Shown here: in pieces, positions 13,356-19,856 of the stretch
Layout: every line of letters begins with the position of its first letter
How positions within the stretch are numbered: position 1 is the first letter of the stretch
Source of the DNA: Clostridia bacterium
Lineage (GTDB): Bacteria; Bacillota; Clostridia; Oscillospirales; CAG-272
Direction of reading: 5' to 3'
DNA length: 37,649 bases
Assembly: GCA_017507145.1 (NCBI GenBank)
Contig: JAFWBJ010000005.1
Location: 1-37,649 of the forward strand
Notes under the pieces: model-generated
Told to the model about the DNA's origin: nothing
Databases searched by the model: none
What the model saw: only the letters and a program-made list of their open reading frames with translations
Program-made: the position numbers and the translations under genes

Positions 13356-13377
13356 GCGCTAAGCGTGAAGACCGAAA

Positions 13378-13406
13378 AAGAGAGGAACCCGTCGGGTTCC
13401 TCTCTT
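13378..13406. terminator. Probable bidirectional terminator between convergent spore operon and esterase copy 1
   Basis: AAGAGAGGAACCCG-T-CGGGTTCCTCTCTT with A-tract on the left and T-rich sequence on the right. Confidence 0.8.
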
Positions 13407-13409
13407 GCT

Positions 13410-14237
13410 TTATGCTTCGCCGTAGTGGAAATCCATGATCCATTTGATGGCCAGATCGATCCAGCCCTGGACGTGTGGGAGATTTTTGCTTTGATCGCCG
13501 TTGTCGGTTTCAGCGTTGGCCAGGCAAAGGCCGTGCGGGCCGTTTGGGTAGATGTGCAGCTCATAGGGGATGCCGGCGGCAGTCATGGCCTCGGCCATGA
13601 GCAGGGCGTTCTGGACGGGGACAGTTTTATCGGTGAAGGTGTGCCAGATGAACGCAGGGCAGGTATGGGGCCCGACGTGCTTCTCCAGCGAGAAGGCGTC
13701 AAGTTCCGGCTCATCACCGGTTGTTTTCATGCCGAGCAGGTAGTTGAAGGACCTGCGGTGTGCGTATTGCCCGCCGCTGATGACGGAGTAGGACAGGATC
13801 ATGCCGGTGGGGCGGTTGATACCCTCGGGGGCATCGCCGAGGTAGGGCTTGAGCTGGGGAATGTTCCAGAGCGTGCCGGCAGCCCCCGCCAGATGTCCGC
13901 CGGCCGAGAAGCCGCAGGTGTAGACATAGCGAGGATCGGTATGGTGTTCTTCCGCGTGCTCGCGGACATATTTGATCGCCAGCGAGACCTGGATGAGCGG
14001 CTGATAATTCTGCGCGCCTTTGCCCACGGTGTAGCGCAGGATATAGACGTTCATACCGGCCGCCAGAAACGGCTTGGCGATCGGTTCAGCTTCACGCTCG
14101 ACGAGAAAATGATAGCCGCCGCCGGGACAGATGATAACGGCGCGGCGGGGAGCAGTTTTTCCGTCACCGAGGTCGGGGAAAGCGTACACAGTCAGTGTTG
14201 CCGGGGTGGGATGAAGGGTTATGGTTTCGTGAATCAT
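13410..14237 (-). CDS. Alpha/beta hydrolase (acetyl/feruloyl esterase-like), copy 1
   Basis: CPGGGY oxyanion loop, GFSAGGH nucleophile, DKTVP, GPHG. Confidence 0.9.
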   Translation of the reverse strand: MIHETITLHPTPATLTVYAFPDLGDGKTAPRRAVIICPGGGYHFLVEREAEPIAKPFLAAGMNVYILRYTVGKGAQNYQPLIQVSLAIKYVREHAEEHHTDPRYVYTCGFSAGGHLAGAAGTLWNIPQLKPYLGDAPEGINRPTGMILSYSVISGGQYAHRRSFNYLLGMKTTGDEPELDAFSLEKHVGPHTCPAFIWHTFTDKTVPVQNALLMAEAMTAAGIPYELHIYPNGPHGLCLANAETDNGDQSKNLPHVQGWIDLAIKWIMDFHYGEA

Positions 14238-14272
14238 AAGGGGTCTCCTTTCGGTGTGAGCAATATCAACTT

Positions 14273-14301
14273 ATTCTACCACGTTTCAGCGGGAGTGTCA
14301 A
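14273..14301 (-). promoter_or_regulatory. sigmaA promoter, esterase copy 1
   Basis: Minus strand TTGACA-N17-TAGAAT with TG extension. Confidence 0.8.
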
Positions 14302-14312
14302 GTCCAGGGAAA

Positions 14313-14355
14313 ATAAAGCAAGAGAGGAACCCGACGGGTTCCTCTCTTGCTTTAT
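14313..14355 (-). terminator. Intrinsic terminator, esterase copy 2
   Basis: 21-1-21 perfect inverted repeat overlapping the stop codon. Confidence 0.8.
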
Positions 14356-15179
14356 GCTTCACCGTAGTGGAAATCCATGACCCATTTGATGGCCAGATTG
14401 ATCCAGTCCTGGACGTGCGGGACATTTCTGCTTTGATTGCCGTTGTCGGTTTCGGCGTCGGCCAGAGAAAGGCCGTGCGGGCCGTCCGGGTAGATGTGCA
14501 GCTCGTAGGGAATGCCGGCGGCAGTCATGGCCTCGGCCATAAGCAGGGCGTTCTGAACGGGGACGGTTTTGTCGGTGAAGGTGTGCCAGATGAATGCGGG
14601 GCAGGTATGGGGCCCGACGTGCTTCTCCAGCGAGAGGGCATCCAGCTCGGGCTCATCACCGGTTGTTTTCATTCCGAGCAGATAGTTGAAGGAGCCGCGA
14701 TGCGCATACTGCCCGCCGCTGATGACCGGGTAGGACAAGATCATGCCGGTGGGGCGGTTGATGCCCTCGGGGGCATCGCCCAGGTAGGGCTTGATCTGGG
14801 GGAGGTTCCAGAGCGTGCCGGCAGCACCCGCCAGATGTCCGCCAGCCGAGAAGCCGCAGGTGTAGACATAGCGGGGATCGGTGTGGTGTTCTTCCGCGTG
14901 CTCGCGAACATACTTGATGGCCAGAGAGACCTGGATGAGGGGCTGATCGTTCTGCGCGCCTTCGCCCACAGTGTAGCGCAGGATATAGACGTTCATGCCG
15001 GCCGCCATGAAGCGCTTGGCGATCGGTTCTGCTTCGCGTTCGGAAAGGAAGCGGTAACCGCCGCCGGGGCAGATGACAACAGCGCGGCGGGGCGCGGTGG
15101 CGGTGTCGCCGAGGTCGGGGAAGGCGTAGACGGTCAAGGTTGCAGGAGTAGGATTGAGGGTTATGGTTTCGTAAATCAT
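14352..15179 (-). CDS. Alpha/beta hydrolase (acetyl/feruloyl esterase-like), copy 2
   Basis: Same motifs as copy 1; 25 of 275 residues differ by manual comparison. Confidence 0.9.
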   Translation of the reverse strand: MIYETITLNPTPATLTVYAFPDLGDTATAPRRAVVICPGGGYRFLSEREAEPIAKRFMAAGMNVYILRYTVGEGAQNDQPLIQVSLAIKYVREHAEEHHTDPRYVYTCGFSAGGHLAGAAGTLWNLPQIKPYLGDAPEGINRPTGMILSYPVISGGQYAHRGSFNYLLGMKTTGDEPELDALSLEKHVGPHTCPAFIWHTFTDKTVPVQNALLMAEAMTAAGIPYELHIYPDGPHGLSLADAETDNGNQSRNVPHVQDWINLAIKWVMDFHYGEA

Positions 15180-15214
15180 ACGGGATGTCCTTTCGGTGTG
15201 AGAAATATCAACTT

Positions 15215-15243
15215 ATTCTACCACGTTTCAGCGGGAGTGTCAA
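15215..15243 (-). promoter_or_regulatory. sigmaA promoter, esterase copy 2
   Basis: Identical to the copy 1 promoter. Confidence 0.8.
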
Positions 15244-15251
15244 GGCTCGAG

Positions 15252-15285
15252 AAAAATAAAGATGGCAGGTCATGCGACCTGCCAT
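15252..15285 (-). terminator. Intrinsic terminator of rpmB
   Basis: ATGGCAGGTC-N4-GACCTGCCAT followed on the minus strand by CTTTATTTTT. Confidence 0.8.
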
Positions 15286-15308
15286 TAACTTTATATGCGC
15301 GGCCTGAC

Positions 15309-15494
15309 TTAAGCGCGGGTGATCTTACCCGAACGCAGGCAACGGGAGCAAACAGCGACGGTTTTCGGAGTGCCGTCTACCAGAGCCTTAACCTTGCGGA
15401 TGTTGGGCTTCCACATTCTGTTCGTCTTTCTATGCGAGTGAGACACGTTCTGACCGAACACAACGCCCTTACCGCAAATGCTGCATTTTGCCAT
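15309..15494 (-). CDS. rpmB: 50S ribosomal protein L28
   Basis: MAKCSICGK...[19 protein letters not shown]...[10 protein letters not shown] (zinc-binding form). Confidence 0.97.
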
Positions 15495-15546
15495 CTTGAC
15501 ACCTCCTCAATATGATCGTATATAGACCGATTAAGCAACAGTATAG

Positions 15547-15575
15547 ATTATAGCATAATCCGCGCAAAATTGCAA
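15547..15575 (-). promoter_or_regulatory. sigmaA promoter of rpmB
   Basis: Minus strand TTGCAA-N17-TATAAT with TG extension. Confidence 0.8.
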
Positions 15576-15613
15576 GGGATTTTCAAAAAAAATTTCGAAA
15601 AAAGCGGGGAATT

Positions 15614-18517
15614 TTACAGGAAGTAGCCAATTCCGGTGCCAAGCATTGCCTTTGTGGGCGGCAAAGCCATGCCGAGCAGCCCACCATCGGCCGAACAAAG
15701 GGCCAAAATCGCCATCTGACCGTTGTGTGTCTCCTCCGCGGCGGCGATGATGCGTCCCTCCGCGGCGAGGGCGGTTCGCGCTTCCGGGGAGATAACCGGA
15801 CACTGCGGCGTATCGGCGAACAGATGCACGGCACGCCGGCCGAGCATGGACGGATCGATCCACGGTGAGGCGGCTGAGACGGTGATGCTGCTGAGCATGC
15901 GGATGCCGGTGCAGGGAGTGTTGGGAATGGCGCTGCCATCCGCCGAGAAATATCCCAGGTTAAGCATGGCGGCGAAGGCTTCGCCCCAGGCACAGATCAG
16001 CCCATCTCGGCGGCGCATGGCGGACAGCGCCTCCACTGTGCGGCGTTGGCCGAACAGAGCTGTGACAAAGGCGCGGTTGCCTGAAAGGAGCAGAATTTGC
16101 GCCTGCTCCAGCCGGTCGGCAAAAGCCGACAGCGATTGTCTCGCGGCGGTGGCACTGCGCAGATCGATGGCGCAGAGCAGGGGCTCACCCCCCTGGGCAG
16201 AGATGGCAGCGGCCAGCGCGGTGGGGATCCGGTCGGCATAAGGGATCAGCACGCGGGGGCGCATGACGCGATGCGCCGAGATGCGCGGGGGAGCGACGGT
16301 GCGATAAAGCGGGGGGATGGCGGCTGGCAGACCGGCGCAGAAGGCGGCACGCAGCTGATCGGTCGAGACAGTTTCCTCGCCCAGCGTGACGCCGTCACCG
16401 ACCGTGGTCTGCCCTAGCGCAATGGCGGCAACGCCCTCGGGAAGGGCAGGCAGTTCGGGAGCGGCGAGCAGAAAGCCGCAGGGAAAGACCGTATTGAGTG
16501 CATCGGCGGGTGCGGTGAGGATCAGGCCGAGGTGGGCGGCTGATGCGGCTGCCGCGGCGGCCGCCGAGGGAGCGAGCATACCGGTGGCGAAAATCGAATG
16601 GTCGGCCTTTCGCATGGCATCTGCCAGTGCAAGCAGTGCACGCTCACCGCGCAGATGGGGCTCAGGGGAGCGAGGGACGAGAAGCCAGAGTGTCGTATCA
16701 GCCCGAAGGGACGCGGTGCTCGTCTGCGGTGCAGGGGCATATGCAGAGACAGTGACCGCCAGGGTGTGGCCCGGACGCAGGTCAGCCGGAGCGGCGGGGA
16801 TGCCCAGTTCGATTTCCACGCAATGCAGGCCAAGCAGTGCGGCGATGGCACGGCCGCAATCCGATCGACCGGCCAACGGGAGTTCGGCTGACAGCGACAG
16901 CGTGACGGCCTGCGGCGATACACCGGCGGCACAGAGCCGGGCGATCAGGGCAAGTGCGCAGTCACGGACGGCGGCGAAGGGATCTTCGCCCGGTCGCACG
17001 GTATCGGCGCAGAGGAGCTTCTCGCCGCAGAGCATGACATCGGCCGGCGATGCGGCGAGTTGGGCTGCGGCGATGGGATCAAATCCAAGCCGGCCGGAGA
17101 GCGCGGGTGAGGCCAGCGAGGCCAGCATCAGCGGCAGAGGCGGGCGATCGGCGGGGACTTCTTCGGGGGTGGGGGTGTTGATCTGCGCATAGATCGCAGG
17201 GCGGGGCGCCAGCATGGCGGCCGGGAAGCAGAGCCGTTCGGGGGCATTTTCCAGCGTGATCTGCGGCTTTTTCTGCACGGCGGCAATCAGCCGATAGCTG
17301 AAGCCAAGCGTGCGGAGGGCATTGGTCATAGCCGGCCCCGAGCCGGGTGCGCAGGCCAGGAGGACAGCGTCGGTGTCGGGGGTGAGGTGTGCCATCAAGC
17401 CCATGCCGGCGGGGGGCGGGGTGATGGCAAGACCGAGCCCGCTCCCCCCCAGCATCTTGCCGAGCACGCCGATCAGCCTGCCTGCCGGAACGGGCAGACT
17501 ACGGCGGATTTTTCCGGCCAGTGCCGGGGATGCGCAGAGGCGGCTCAGCCTGTCGGCAAATGCGGTTTCGCTTCGGCCGGAAGAAAGAACCAGAAGCAGG
17601 CGATCGTCGGGCATCACGGATGCGGCAGGGCAGGGGGATGCAGACAGGCAGACCTTGGTCTGACCGGCAGGTGTGCCAAATCCGCCCATCGCCGCGCCGC
17701 CGAAGCCGGCAAGCCGCGCGGGGGAGTCGGCGGTCTGCACCGGCGGGACTGCTGCGCCGCGATGGGCGCAGAGATAGGCAGAAGCGGTATCGGCCAGCTC
17801 TTGCAGGGTAGCGGGGGCGTCAGCCCCCGGCGTGACGATGGCGCGCTTGGCCATCAGATCGGCATAGACGGTATGCAGGCGGGCATCGCTCGTGAGAAAT
17901 TCGACCGGTGCGCAGGCTGCCGGATCGGTCAGCGCTGCGCGATAGGCCTCATCCAGAATCAGCAGCTCCTCAGGCTGCGGCTCGCGGCCGAGCGCGCGGT
18001 AATGGTCGGCAATTATCGACAGGCATGCCGCCGGCAGAGCCAGCCCCCGGGCCGCGCCCCAGCCATCCAGCCGGTCATCCGAGAGCGCAATGAAATCGGC
18101 GACCGCCGCCGCAGACAGTGTGCGCGGTGCATGATCTTGCGCAGTTGGCGGGAGCAGGCGGGCGCGGGCGATGCGGTACTGCGCCTCATCCAGGCCGCAG
18201 AGCACGATGATGCGGCTCTGCCGCACCGCGGCATCGATACCGGCGGCGCGCAGGAGCATCGCGCGTCCCTCATCAGGCTCGTCGGGCAGGGAGACGCATC
18301 GCATATCCTCCCGCAGCGAGAGGGTGTCGGTCAGTTTTCCGCCCAGCGGGGCGAGCAGAGGGCGAAGGGTCTCGGCAGGGTAAGCCGATTCTACCGTGAG
18401 GCAGGTGATCAAGCGCAGGTCGCGCAGGGCGCTCAGCGCCGAATCAGCAGTCAGCGTGCGCAGAAGGGCGAGCGCTTCGGTGCGGTCGGCAGATTCAAAA
18501 AAGAGACAGGATTGCAT
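15614..18517 (-). CDS. Highly diverged PurL (FGAM synthase)-like protein, catalytic motifs absent
   Basis: 967-aa open frame, SD AAAGGA; colinear residual similarity to fused clostridial PurL (RGLAL...YRALGREP..EELLILD; GRAIAALLG...ELGIPA; RPRVLIP; RDGLI...FAAMLNLG; SPW; NG..AI....S.DG..LG; terminal G..YF). Confidence 0.7.
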   Translation of the reverse strand: MQSCLFFESADRTEALALLRTLTADSALSALRDLRLITCLTVESAYPAETLRPLLAPLGGKLTDTLSLREDMRCVSLPDEPDEGRAMLLRAAGIDAAVRQSRIIVLCGLDEAQYRIARARLLPPTAQDHAPRTLSAAAVADFIALSDDRLDGWGAARGLALPAACLSIIADHYRALGREPQPEELLILDEAYRAALTDPAACAPVEFLTSDARLHTVYADLMAKRAIVTPGADAPATLQELADTASAYLCAHRGAAVPPVQTADSPARLAGFGGAAMGGFGTPAGQTKVCLSASPCPAASVMPDDRLLLVLSSGRSETAFADRLSRLCASPALAGKIRRSLPVPAGRLIGVLGKMLGGSGLGLAITPPPAGMGLMAHLTPDTDAVLLACAPGSGPAMTNALRTLGFSYRLIAAVQKKPQITLENAPERLCFPAAMLAPRPAIYAQINTPTPEEVPADRPPLPLMLASLASPALSGRLGFDPIAAAQLAASPADVMLCGEKLLCADTVRPGEDPFAAVRDCALALIARLCAAGVSPQAVTLSLSAELPLAGRSDCGRAIAALLGLHCVEIELGIPAAPADLRPGHTLAVTVSAYAPAPQTSTASLRADTTLWLLVPRSPEPHLRGERALLALADAMRKADHSIFATGMLAPSAAAAAAASAAHLGLILTAPADALNTVFPCGFLLAAPELPALPEGVAAIALGQTTVGDGVTLGEETVSTDQLRAAFCAGLPAAIPPLYRTVAPPRISAHRVMRPRVLIPYADRIPTALAAAISAQGGEPLLCAIDLRSATAARQSLSAFADRLEQAQILLLSGNRAFVTALFGQRRTVEALSAMRRRDGLICAWGEAFAAMLNLGYFSADGSAIPNTPCTGIRMLSSITVSAASPWIDPSMLGRRAVHLFADTPQCPVISPEARTALAAEGRIIAAAEETHNGQMAILALCSADGGLLGMALPPTKAMLGTGIGYFL

Positions 18518-18542
18518 GGTTCTGATCCTTTCTTTGGGAAAA

Positions 18543-19856
18543 TCAGGCTTGGCAGCAGACGGCGATCAAGCTTTGCCCATCATGGCCGATGGGCTTGACC
18601 GGCAGTTCAAGACCGCGCAGGTCGCGTTCGGCGGCGACGCGGACGGGATAGAATGATGGGGTATGGCCCTGCGCGATGCCGTCTTGCTGGGTTTCAAAGA
18701 GCACGGAGATGGTGTCGCCGGCGGCAACGGCTTCGTCGAGCAGCAGGCGATGCATTTCGTCCTGCGCGGCAATCAGCGCGGCTGAGCGTGCACGCTTGAC
18801 AGGCTCTGGAATCTGCCCCGGCATGCCGGCAGCCTCGGTACCGGGCCGGCGGGAGTAGGCGAAGATGTGGGCGTCAAGGAAGCGGGCTTCGCGCAGGAAG
18901 GCAAGGCTTTCGGCAAAGTCGTCCTCAGTCTCCTGCGGGAATCCCACGATGATGTCGGTTGTGAGCCCCGCCTGTGGAAAGGCATCACGCAGACGGCGGA
19001 TGGCCGCGCGGGCCATGTCGGCGGAGTAGGGACGGCGCATCAGCCGCAGGACGTGGTCGGCGCCGCTTTGCAGCGAGAGGTGAAAATGCGGCGCGATCGA
19101 AGCGAGGGGGGCAATCTGCTCGACAAAGCGATCGCGAATCAGCGACGGATCAAGCGAGCCGAGCCGGATGCGGCCGATGCCGGTCTCACGGTCAAGATCA
19201 CGCAGCAGGTCGCCCAGACGATAGTCGCCCAGATCGCGGCCGTAGGCCGAGGTTTCGATGCCGGTCAACACCACTTCGCGGCATCCCGATTCGGCGAGAG
19301 CGCGCACCTCAGCGATGACGTTGGCCGGTGCTTTGGAGCGGATTTTGCCGCGCGCGGCGGGAATGATGCAGTAAGCACAGTGCTGCTCACAGCCGTCCTC
19401 GATTTTGACATAGGCGCGCGTGCGGCCAAAGCGGGTGATCTGCATGGCTTCAAAGGGCGCATCCTCCAGAGAGGAAACGGCGACTGTCGGACGCTCATTC
19501 TTGCATCCCTGCGCCAAAAGCGCCTCTGCCGCCCGCACCACCGAGAGCTTTTCGCGGTTGCCGCAGATATAATCGACCCCATCGATGGCGGCGATCTGCG
19601 CCGGATCAACCTGGGCAAAGCATCCGGTGACCAGAATCAGCGCGTGGGGATTCTGCCCGAGCGCGCGGCGAATGAACTGCCGCGCCTTGCGGTCACTCTC
19701 GGCGGTGACGGTGCAGGTGTTGATGATATACAGCGAGCAGACCTCGGTCGGGTCGCAGACCGTGATTCCGGCGCGCATCAGCGCTTCGGCAATCGCTTCG
19801 CTTTCGTATTGGTTGACTTTGCATCCCAGCGTGTAGATTCCGGCGGTGGCAGACAT
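18543..19856 (-). CDS. mtaB: tRNA t6A37 methylthiotransferase MtaB (radical SAM)
   Basis: TLGCKVNQYESE, INTCTVT, VTGCFAQ, RAYVKIEDGCEQHCAYCIIP (CxxxCxxC), HFHLSLQSG, DIIVGFP; ATG 19856 after AAAGGAG. Confidence 0.93.
   Translation of the reverse strand: MSATAGIYTLGCKVNQYESEAIAEALMRAGITVCDPTEVCSLYIINTCTVTAESDRKARQFIRRALGQNPHALILVTGCFAQVDPAQIAAIDGVDYICGNREKLSVVRAAEALLAQGCKNERPTVAVSSLEDAPFEAMQITRFGRTRAYVKIEDGCEQHCAYCIIPAARGKIRSKAPANVIAEVRALAESGCREVVLTGIETSAYGRDLGDYRLGDLLRDLDRETGIGRIRLGSLDPSLIRDRFVEQIAPLASIAPHFHLSLQSGADHVLRLMRRPYSADMARAAIRRLRDAFPQAGLTTDIIVGFPQETEDDFAESLAFLREARFLDAHIFAYSRRPGTEAAGMPGQIPEPVKRARSAALIAAQDEMHRLLLDEAVAAGDTISVLFETQQDGIAQGHTPSFYPVRVAAERDLRGLELPVKPIGHDGQSLIAVCCQA

Follow-up and report, generated by a model that had tools for sequence, protein, structure and literature searches.

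A probably non-catalytic paralogue of PurL encoded behind mtaB in one family of Clostridia

We analyzed a stretch of 37,649 nucleotides from a Clostridia bacterium (contig JAFWBJ010000005.1 of assembly GCA_017507145.1; “the window”), and in it an open reading frame (ORF) of 967 codons that lies directly behind mtaB, the gene of a tRNA methylthiotransferase. A first-pass annotation, made from the letters of the DNA, had described the encoded protein as a pseudoenzyme derived from PurL, the phosphoribosylformylglycinamidine (FGAM) synthase. We report that the gene is homologous from end to end to the fused PurL of the Firmicutes type, of which it is a paralogue, and that its product is very probably a non-catalytic derivative of this enzyme. 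The finding extends from one reading frame to a small PurL-derived family, invisible to Pfam, beside mtaB in one family of Clostridia. The carriers are some gut and rumen Clostridia.

Descent from PurL

Searches of the sequences in the Protein Data Bank (PDB) were empty: the single protein gave only a chance match (E 0.84), and the family profile had its best match at E about 0.9, to RluC. Homology therefore had to be established by profile-profile alignment and by fold comparison. Pfam recognized zero families in the 967-residue protein, GATase_5 and AIRS/AIRS_C included, and the sole match in NCBIfam was TIGR01857 with an E-value of 6.8e-6 and 23.9 bits, compared to a cut-off of 1057.05.

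For the profile alignment nine members represented the family, and the PurL reference consisted of eight canonical fused PurLs, collected in sister genomes and in a representative protein search. Using hhalign, both were joined with a probability of 99.8% and E 3.1e-29 over 928 columns, leading from residues 4-956 of the query to residues 4-1203 of the 1234 in PurL, and pairing the N-terminal residues 4-137 with PurL 4-163. A global profile-profile alignment run locally gave E 8.9e-46 over 940 columns. In 61 related genomes the family profile matched, outside the own genus, canonical PurL frames of ~1230-1270 amino acids (aa), and did so in three colinear stretches (138-253, 511-577 and 754-953). 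A second profile, calculated from 57 short-form proteins (see below), met canonical PurL at positions 164-1035 with a probability of 99.9% and E 6.5e-35. The colinear descent which the annotation had read from remnants of motifs is thus borne out by hhalign as well as by the top matches in Foldseek and VIA-align given below. Its remark that the protein is shorter than a typical fused PurL is also correct, the difference being about 260 residues.

The annotation had further expected a canonical purL elsewhere in the genome. This gene was found on contigs C36 and C13, where it reaches 1077.9 bits, above the TIGR01857 cut-off. It is present as two pieces at contig ends, C36:2-2287 and C13:1645-2553, which correspond to model positions 473-1239 and 2-311. 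The middle of the gene is unassembled, representing a break in the assembly and no split gene. Sister genomes contain a canonical purL as well, encoding 1230 aa.

Loss of the catalytic apparatus

The eight canonical PurLs have 340 invariant columns in common, which we traced through the profile alignment. Of these, 106 are deleted in the family and 234 are aligned; 89 are kept in the protein from the window. Every catalytic block is deleted or replaced in nine out of nine family members. SDHCRH is replaced, with R-x-A-x-C-A-P in the family, the segments PurL 282-341 (including KNETHNHP..GGAIRDP) and 442-473 (including GRDG.GGATGSS) are deleted, CNDFGAGG reads SLPV..G., RFDSTIGAG..PFGG is deleted or replaced in all nine members, SESQERM is unrecognizable, and the second-half loop at PurL 644-660 (RFDSTIGAGSVLMPFGG) is deleted. 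GGKDSMSGS reads P-A-x-L, with K768, D769 and S770 replaced or deleted. PGTNCE is lost. GICNGF reads A-W-G-E-A-F, which puts Gly845 at the position of the nucleophile, and GHSER reads P-P-T/S, with Pro953-Pro954-Thr955 at the His-Ser-Glu positions. The Cys-His-Glu triad of GATase_5-type amidotransferases is accordingly absent, and Gly845 and Pro953-Pro954-Thr/Ser955 are found instead.

The loss of catalytic motifs reported by the annotation, including the glutaminase Cys, His and Glu, is in agreement with this column mapping. The invariance of the lost blocks in canonical PurL was computed. In PurL they form the site for ATP and phosphoribosylformylglycinamide (FGAR), another site for a nucleotide and the triad of the glutaminase. 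Judged from its sequence, the protein would neither synthesize FGAM nor hydrolyze glutamine.

The columns that are kept are chiefly Gly, Pro, Leu and Ala, together with R178, P180 and E184 of the linker. If long and short forms are regarded together, conservation of 90% or more is limited to about 14 positions, most of them Gly, Pro, Leu or shared with PurL. Conserved across all forms, and again mostly shared with PurL, are R178, P180, E184, D305, G532, L562 and G563. The stretch TYAD.M.KRR (residues 217-225) is specific for the family and conserved in long and short forms. An Fe-S or Cys motif was considered as well, but the three invariant cysteines of the long form (C165, C842 and C906) are positioned far apart in the sequence, and two of them belong to a domain that is absent from the short forms.

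Predicted fold

The AlphaFold2 (AF2) model of the 967-residue protein, calculated from an alignment of 88 sequences, has a predicted local distance difference test score (pLDDT) of 93.4 and a predicted TM-score (pTM) of 0.91. Compared to the PDB using Foldseek, the top 19 matches are Salmonella FGAM synthetase and human PFAS, with E-values from 8.8e-32 to 2.1e-26 and query TM-scores (TMq) of 0.55-0.58. Small PurL follows, and then ThiL, HypE and SelD (E 1e-8 to 1e-6). VIA-align superimposed model residues 1-967 on Salmonella PurL 6lym with Z 19.5 over 891 residues, and residues 138-731 on Thermus thermophilus PurL 3viu with Z 20.6; ThiL, HypE and SelD were next after PurL at Z 14-15. The PurM superfamily fold, with N- and C-subdomains, is matched by the model, and a class I amidotransferase fold is predicted for residues 755-967 (P. 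horikoshii 2d7j, Z 14.2, root-mean-square deviation 2.9 A, 172 residues). According to the model a three-domain fold is retained, in which the N-domain is PurS-like, the synthetase is pseudo-dimeric and of the PurM type, and the third domain resembles a class-I amidotransferase. Structure prediction followed by Foldseek had been suggested by the annotation as a check, with a missing PurL match counting against the idea; PurL came out top-ranked.

The alignment behind the AF2 model held a few canonical PurLs, which possibly introduces a bias. The single-sequence model of the same protein in the ESM Atlas matches PurL-family clusters. A short member of 567 aa was modelled from 66 proteins, none of them longer than 973 aa (the fused PurLs considered here have 1228-1268 aa), and obtained a pLDDT of 91.0, with PurL making up all of its top 26 matches. 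These two models, made without canonical PurLs, agree with the first one.

Relatives, lengths and distribution

Among close relatives the protein search returned nine sequences of 942-973 aa at 40-57% identity and one at 99%. A representative library of 1.84 billion proteins yielded 124 matches at E <= 1e-3 and 6 at E <= 1e-30. The remaining proteins are mainly about 550-765 aa long and cover query residues 140-690. Full-length orthologues (939-980 aa, 40-57% identity, free of stops) were found only in the own genus, where the 967-residue type was detected in five out of six other genomes, three times full-length and stop-free and twice cut by contig ends. The sixth genome, which gave no match, is 67% complete. 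Other genera of the same taxonomic family have shortened forms of 547-818 aa, so that the length falls stepwise from 980 to about 700-820 and further to about 550-640 aa. As the short-form profile covers PurL 164-1035 only, these forms are without the PurS-like N-domain, and their amidotransferase domain is missing completely or by half. In none of eight short forms scanned with Pfam was an AIRS or AIRS_C signal obtained. Four short forms from the protein search had no Pfam family at all and in NCBIfam touch only TIGR01857 (E 4e-27 to 5e-10), at colinear positions. The orthologues which the annotation had proposed to collect are intact, and we add that the 967-residue form was found in one genus only and stands at one end of a shortening series.

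Using the short-form profile at E <= 1e-35, the gene was detected in at least 15 out of 150 other genomes of the family, belonging to 11 out of 97 genera. This number is a floor, since one genome with a known long form did not reach the threshold. Across 29 other families of the order (375 genomes, two candidates scored in each) there was no match at E <= 1e-35. In a sample of 399 genomes of the class, again with two candidates scored per genome, the matches listed (150 of 606) scored, outside the own genome, like ordinary PurL segments, with at most 102 bits and in frames of about 1230-1320 aa or shorter.

Two further observations concern relatives. A cluster of 763-residue proteins in the short family (P0045, P0135) is the least degenerate of those scanned, with 94 bits to TIGR01857. 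One of its members is labelled as coming from a Kiritimatiellae metagenome-assembled genome (MAG), so that either the contig was binned wrongly or the family reaches beyond Clostridia. Moreover, a divergent PurL-like protein of 1160 aa, related to P0096, from an Eubacteriales MAG (L087, 2998-6480, plus strand) reaches 364 bits to TIGR01857 with weak GATase_5 and has no mtaB adjacent; by its sequence it may be another PurL paralogue or a divergent real purL.

Linkage to mtaB

The gene for MtaB is located directly upstream of the PurL-like gene in 14 out of 15 family loci, the 15th being cut by a contig end, and also in three out of three loci of the genus that were examined with wide flanks. 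Leaving out L076 (a duplicate of L027) and L079 (cut), 17 loci were readable. In all of them mtaB is upstream, in line with the synteny check proposed by the annotation, and the PurL-like ORF is complete (547-980 aa). With starts chosen automatically, the PurL-like gene begins -14 to +160 nt from the end of mtaB, and overlaps of 4 nt or gaps of 1-30 nt are frequent.

Among the loci compared no conserved neighbour other than mtaB was observed. Downstream of the PurL-like gene, a BD-FAE hydrolase is found in the window and in three out of three genus relatives, and tyrosyl-tRNA synthetase (TyrRS) at three loci from three genera (L068, L073 and L077; genomes G016, G491 and G569). HtpG, DUF6873, an AMP-binding/cupin protein and, on the opposite strand, a transketolase occupy this place at one locus each. 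In four family genomes without the PurL-like gene, mtaB is followed by alanyl-tRNA synthetase (AlaRS; genome G008), a GDSL-like protein, an amidohydrolase and a solute-binding protein, respectively. TyrRS after the gene in three genera, together with AlaRS after mtaB in G008, suggests a translation-related insertion site.

If the MtaB sequences of 17 carriers are aligned with those of non-carriers, of which only four were sampled, a single one out of 506 columns separates the two groups. A complex prediction for the core (residues 135-695) with MtaB, using separate alignments and run without controls, returned a score of 0.00 and gave no answer.

Rate of change and selection

Substitution rates were calculated according to Nei-Gojobori for four full-length copies from the genus. 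For the PurL-like gene the proportion of nonsynonymous differences (pN) is 0.36-0.44 and the corresponding rate (dN) 0.50-0.66, with saturated synonymous differences (pS 0.67-0.73). In the same set dN is 0.14-0.22 for MtaB and 0.02-0.06 for canonical PurL, which puts the PurL-like gene about 3-fold above MtaB and 10-fold above PurL in its rate of change. Its formal dN/dS of 0.19-0.38 represents an upper estimate because the synonymous rate (dS) is saturated. These sequence comparisons indicate purifying selection that is relaxed and much weaker than on the neighbouring genes. The view of the annotation that the gene is selected and no pseudogene is therefore supported by the absence of stops and by pN being lower than pS, and needs to be qualified by the relaxed selection and the very fast divergence.

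Over the 17 loci the pairwise identity of MtaB is 48-81% (median 55%), compared to 15-48% (median 19%) for the PurL-like protein. The closest pairs are shared by both proteins, with identities (MtaB/PurL-like) of 81/46, 79/48, 75/46, 69/32 and 64/28%, and Spearman's rho between both identities is 0.38 over 136 non-independent pairs. This is an argument for vertical inheritance together with mtaB and against mobility. The second codon position of the PurL-like gene contains 57% G+C, compared to about 45% in its neighbours, and in the protein Ala accounts for 19%, Leu for 14% and Pro for 8% of the residues, the isoelectric point (pI) being about 6. Such a drift toward GC-rich codons may be explained by many positions being free to change.

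A separate observation concerns the genomes G001 and G002, in which canonical PurL is 96% identical (dS 0.52), MtaB 79% (dS 1.37) and the PurL-like protein 48%. The low divergence of purL is possibly caused by strong codon constraint or by a recent exchange of purL between the species.

Comparison with known systems

By descent and fold the protein is a member of the PurL lineage and of the PurM superfamily; it is not a PurL enzyme. The only curated model touched by both long and short forms is TIGR01857. With the fused PurLs of this model (about 1230-1270 aa) the protein shares the order and fold of three domains and the R, P and E of the linker. It differs in being about 260 residues shorter, in the deleted or replaced catalytic blocks, in its location outside a pur context and in its about 10 times faster evolution. 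Compared to the small PurL of the PurQ/PurS system, the core of all forms is alike (Z 20.6 to 3viu by VIA-align, Z 18-20 to T. maritima PurL), and the short forms of 547-640 aa have about the same size, but AIRS/AIRS_C signals, catalytic blocks and an adjacent purQ or purS are missing. The ESM Atlas contains clusters labelled “PurL family protein” (786-1016 aa, Bacillota and Bacteroidota) that resemble the family in their shortened PurL architecture (TM 0.48-0.60); in contrast to the mtaB-linked family, where none is found, they possess recognizable AIRS_C and/or GATase_5 domains of Pfam.

The annotation had drawn an analogy to herpesviruses. According to PMC7605207, the gammaherpesvirus homologues of the FGAR amidotransferase (FGARAT), ORF75/BNRF1 or “vGAT”, are PurL-derived and enzyme-deficient, and these pseudoenzymes are reported to act via cellular PFAS. 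The 967-residue model matches 12 viral FGARAT-like proteins (E 8.4e-25 to 4e-5, with TMq 0.37 at the best E-value). Both groups are derived from PurL and without its catalytic residues, and they differ in host, context and size, which makes this a likeness of kind and no membership. As the model fits cellular PurL (E 8.8e-32, TMq 0.55-0.58) better than the viral proteins, parallel and independent derivations are suggested. The analogy therefore holds for the kind of derivation and does not extend to a relationship closer than that to cellular PurL. Pseudoenzymes that arose from enzymes of core metabolism are well described for eukaryotes and for viruses, but rarely for bacteria. In our literature search, with subscription-only papers outside its scope, no bacterial PurL-derived pseudoenzyme was found, and the annotation had likewise been aware of none; where pseudoenzymes were treated together with PurL or FGARAT, the subject was herpesvirus proteins.

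Two candidate roles were considered and rejected. Fast evolution and patchy spread raised the idea of a defence protein, but PADLOC recognized none of eight long and short members, and its inheritance is joined to that of a housekeeping gene and not to a mobile element. RNA binding by bulk charge is not supported, the pI being 5.0-6.6 and the net charge negative in 16 out of 16 family proteins computed.

Gene, local signals and neighbouring genes

The features are listed in Table 1. The coordinates and intactness of the frame given by the annotation were reproduced, as were the Shine-Dalgarno site and the spacing to mtaB, and all peptide strings it had quoted were recovered in the translation; we add that the frame is on the minus strand.

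Table 1. Positions of the PurL-like gene, its predicted domains and quoted peptides, mtaB and local signals
Feature	Position	Strand	Basis or remark
mtaB, tRNA ms2t6A methylthiotransferase, first gene of the pair	18543..19856	minus	437 aa from ATG at 19856
Intergenic spacer mtaB/PurL-like	18518..18542	minus	25 nt, ribosome-binding site AAAGGA 8 nt before ATG
Probable PurL-derived pseudoenzyme gene	15614..18517	minus	967 aa + stop, no internal stop, ATG start; translation, hhalign, AF2 model
PurS-like N-terminal domain (aa 1-125)	18143..18517	minus	hhalign and model; retained in 967-aa form only
Linker, best-conserved stretch (aa 135-215)	17873..18115	minus	R178, P180, E184 of PurL kept; SDHCRH replaced
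Degenerate FGAM-synthetase domain, PurM superfamily (aa 216-735)	16313..17872	minus	both nucleotide-loop regions deleted; VIA Z 20.6
Glutaminase-like domain without triad (aa 750-967)	15617..16270	minus	Z 14.2 to 2d7j; column mapping
Terminator-like hairpin, then T run	15262..15285	minus	consensus scan only
Peptide GLAL..YRALGREPQPEELLILDEAYR	aa 159-193	minus	translation
Peptide LSRLCASPALAGKIRR	aa 324-339	minus	translation
Peptide GRAIAALLG..ELGIPA	aa 555-575	minus	translation
Peptide RPRVLIPY	aa 753-760	minus	translation
Peptide QILLLSG	aa 807-813	minus	translation
Peptide RDGLICAWGEAFAAMLNLG	aa 837-855	minus	translation
Peptide DGGLLGMALPP	aa 944-954	minus	translation
Peptide GIGYFL	C-terminus	minus	translation

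The identity of mtaB is given by TIGR01579 (411 bits, cut-off 357), and Radical_SAM and UPF0004 match as well. Its start is preceded by AAAGGAG at a distance of 5 nt, and orthologues start at the same residue. A consensus scan of the spacer between both genes revealed neither a promoter-like nor a terminator-like site. The hairpin downstream is the probable end of the mtaB/PurL-like transcription unit. The stretch 15286-15613 (~330 nt) between the PurL-like stop and the hairpin is without a convincing ORF and contains a promoter-like site on the minus strand at 15575-15547; an Rfam scan of the window, this stretch included, gave zero matches. From its sequence it could be a 3' untranslated region or a small transcript.

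Open frames of 403, 268 and 172 aa on the plus strand overlap the PurL-like gene in antisense, and a frame of 716 aa (13365-15515) is antisense to both hydrolase genes described below. None of them has a Pfam match. These are typical shadows of GC-rich coding DNA and a potential trap for gene callers.

The neighbours in the window comprise two BD-FAE hydrolases, upp, an RluD-like pseudouridine synthase, a beta-eliminating lyase, a TP_methylase, a HAD hydrolase and a methyltransferase. Within about 8 kb of the PurL-like gene there are no pur genes, as already stated by the annotation. The genes upp and that of the RluD-like synthase are transcribed divergently from mtaB. Downstream of the PurL-like gene are the two BD-FAE alpha/beta hydrolases (13410-14237 and 14352-15179, both minus strand), a tandem with 91% identity over 275 aa. 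Each has its own promoter-like site, and this site is identical before both genes (TTGACA-17-TAGAAT, with TG upstream). Since the three genus relatives also have a BD-FAE gene after the PurL-like gene, the duplication, seen in one genome, looks recent and peculiar to the source genome.

Interpretation

The reading we put forward is that of a non-catalytic, PurL-derived protein that is made with MtaB, acts by binding and has a role tied to MtaB; taken as a whole it has, in our judgement, an even chance of being right. The tie to MtaB is suggested by MtaB being the only constant neighbour and by the frequent translational coupling. The protein could be a binding module produced in step with MtaB by co-transcription and often by translational coupling, most likely as an accessory or adaptor for MtaB or its tRNA-modification context. 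Its activity may be located in the linker/synthetase core, as this is the sole part common to all forms. In other genera the three-domain form has been reduced, first by the N-domain together with one half of the amidotransferase domain and finally to the bare linker/synthetase core. That the protein in fact works with MtaB is a tentative proposal and less likely than not. In its most far-reaching version, a dedicated, fast co-evolving and non-catalytic partner of MtaB that would be the first bacterial PurL-derived pseudoenzyme, we consider it unlikely. Such a partner might tune the formation of 2-methylthio-N6-threonylcarbamoyladenosine (ms2t6A) at position 37; it could, for instance, hold tRNA or MtaB or link the modification to nitrogen or purine status.

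Several observations weigh against the reading put forward. MtaB is present in four out of five non-carriers checked, so the PurL-like protein is not generally needed by it, and 135 out of 150 family genomes are without a match at the threshold used. The extreme divergence and the stepwise loss of domains fit a weakly constrained gene equally well. The residues conserved in all forms look, as far as the alignment goes, like maintenance of the fold and not like a new functional patch.

Part of this leads to the idea of a relic, a copy of purL that landed behind mtaB in an ancestor of the family, became inactive, persists in some lineages with hardly any specific function or none, and is being trimmed one domain after another and lost in most genera. 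The patchy presence (15 out of 150 genomes, 11 out of 97 genera), the length series from 980 via about 700-820 to about 550-640 aa, the dN that is 3-fold higher than for MtaB and 10-fold higher than for PurL, the compositional drift to an Ala/Leu/Pro-rich protein (second-position GC 0.57 compared to about 0.45) and the prevalence of fold residues among the conserved ones would all follow from it. However, all of the 17 ORFs examined are complete, pN is clearly lower than pS, confident compact models were obtained for the long and one short form, and the gene has stayed behind mtaB in genera that share no more than 48-60% identity in MtaB; a functionless insert of 1.6-2.9 kb is expected to be lost or broken over such divergence. 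We consider a relic, which is the main rival of our reading, unlikely on balance. A newly functionalized enzyme, having another active site on the scaffold unrelated to FGAM synthesis, would agree with the well kept fold, with polar residues conserved specifically in the family (as in TYAD.M.KRR) and with the shorter “PurL family protein” clusters that exist in other phyla. It is rendered improbable by the nature of the about 14 positions of at least 90% conservation, mostly Gly, Pro, Leu or shared with PurL, by the deletion of both PurM-type nucleotide loops and by a divergence that is unusually fast for an enzyme.

Given the descent from PurL and the viral FGARAT pseudoenzymes, which are reported to act via cellular PFAS (PMC7605207), the protein might also be thought to sense purine or glutamine status or to regulate canonical PurL, thereby linking purine supply to another process. 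The blocks of the FGAR/ATP site and the residues of the glutamine site are, however, deleted or replaced, and mtaB instead of a pur gene is the sole conserved neighbour, which leaves little probability for such a sensor or regulator. Finally, the frame could be no gene at all but a chance product of GC-rich DNA or the shadow of a plus-strand gene. The antisense frames of 403, 268 and 172 aa do overlap it, and G+C at the third codon position alone cannot separate the strands. Yet with 67% G+C, as in this region, a run of 967 stop-free codons has a probability of 1.1e-8, and the ORFs in 300 shuffled sequences, all frames considered, reached at most 405 codons, so that chance does not account for the frame. 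Full-length homologues exist at 40-57% identity, and it is the minus-strand frame that has a confident PurL-fold model, while the plus-strand frames are without a Pfam match. A non-gene is thus practically negligible.

What the family means

Being invisible to Pfam, the family is annotated in genomes as a large hypothetical protein. Its appeal lies in a clean evolutionary case and a striking coupling to mtaB, within the limits of a narrow range, weak constraint and a role that is putative only. If the gene is a slowly dying paralogue, its value would mainly be for annotation and evolutionary study. The steps of reduction can be read across living genera and provide a clean natural series for the decay or re-use of a multidomain enzyme. 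If a physical partnership with MtaB is true, the protein would be a hitherto unrecognized accessory factor of a conserved tRNA-modification enzyme, whose human relative CDKAL1 is linked to disease.

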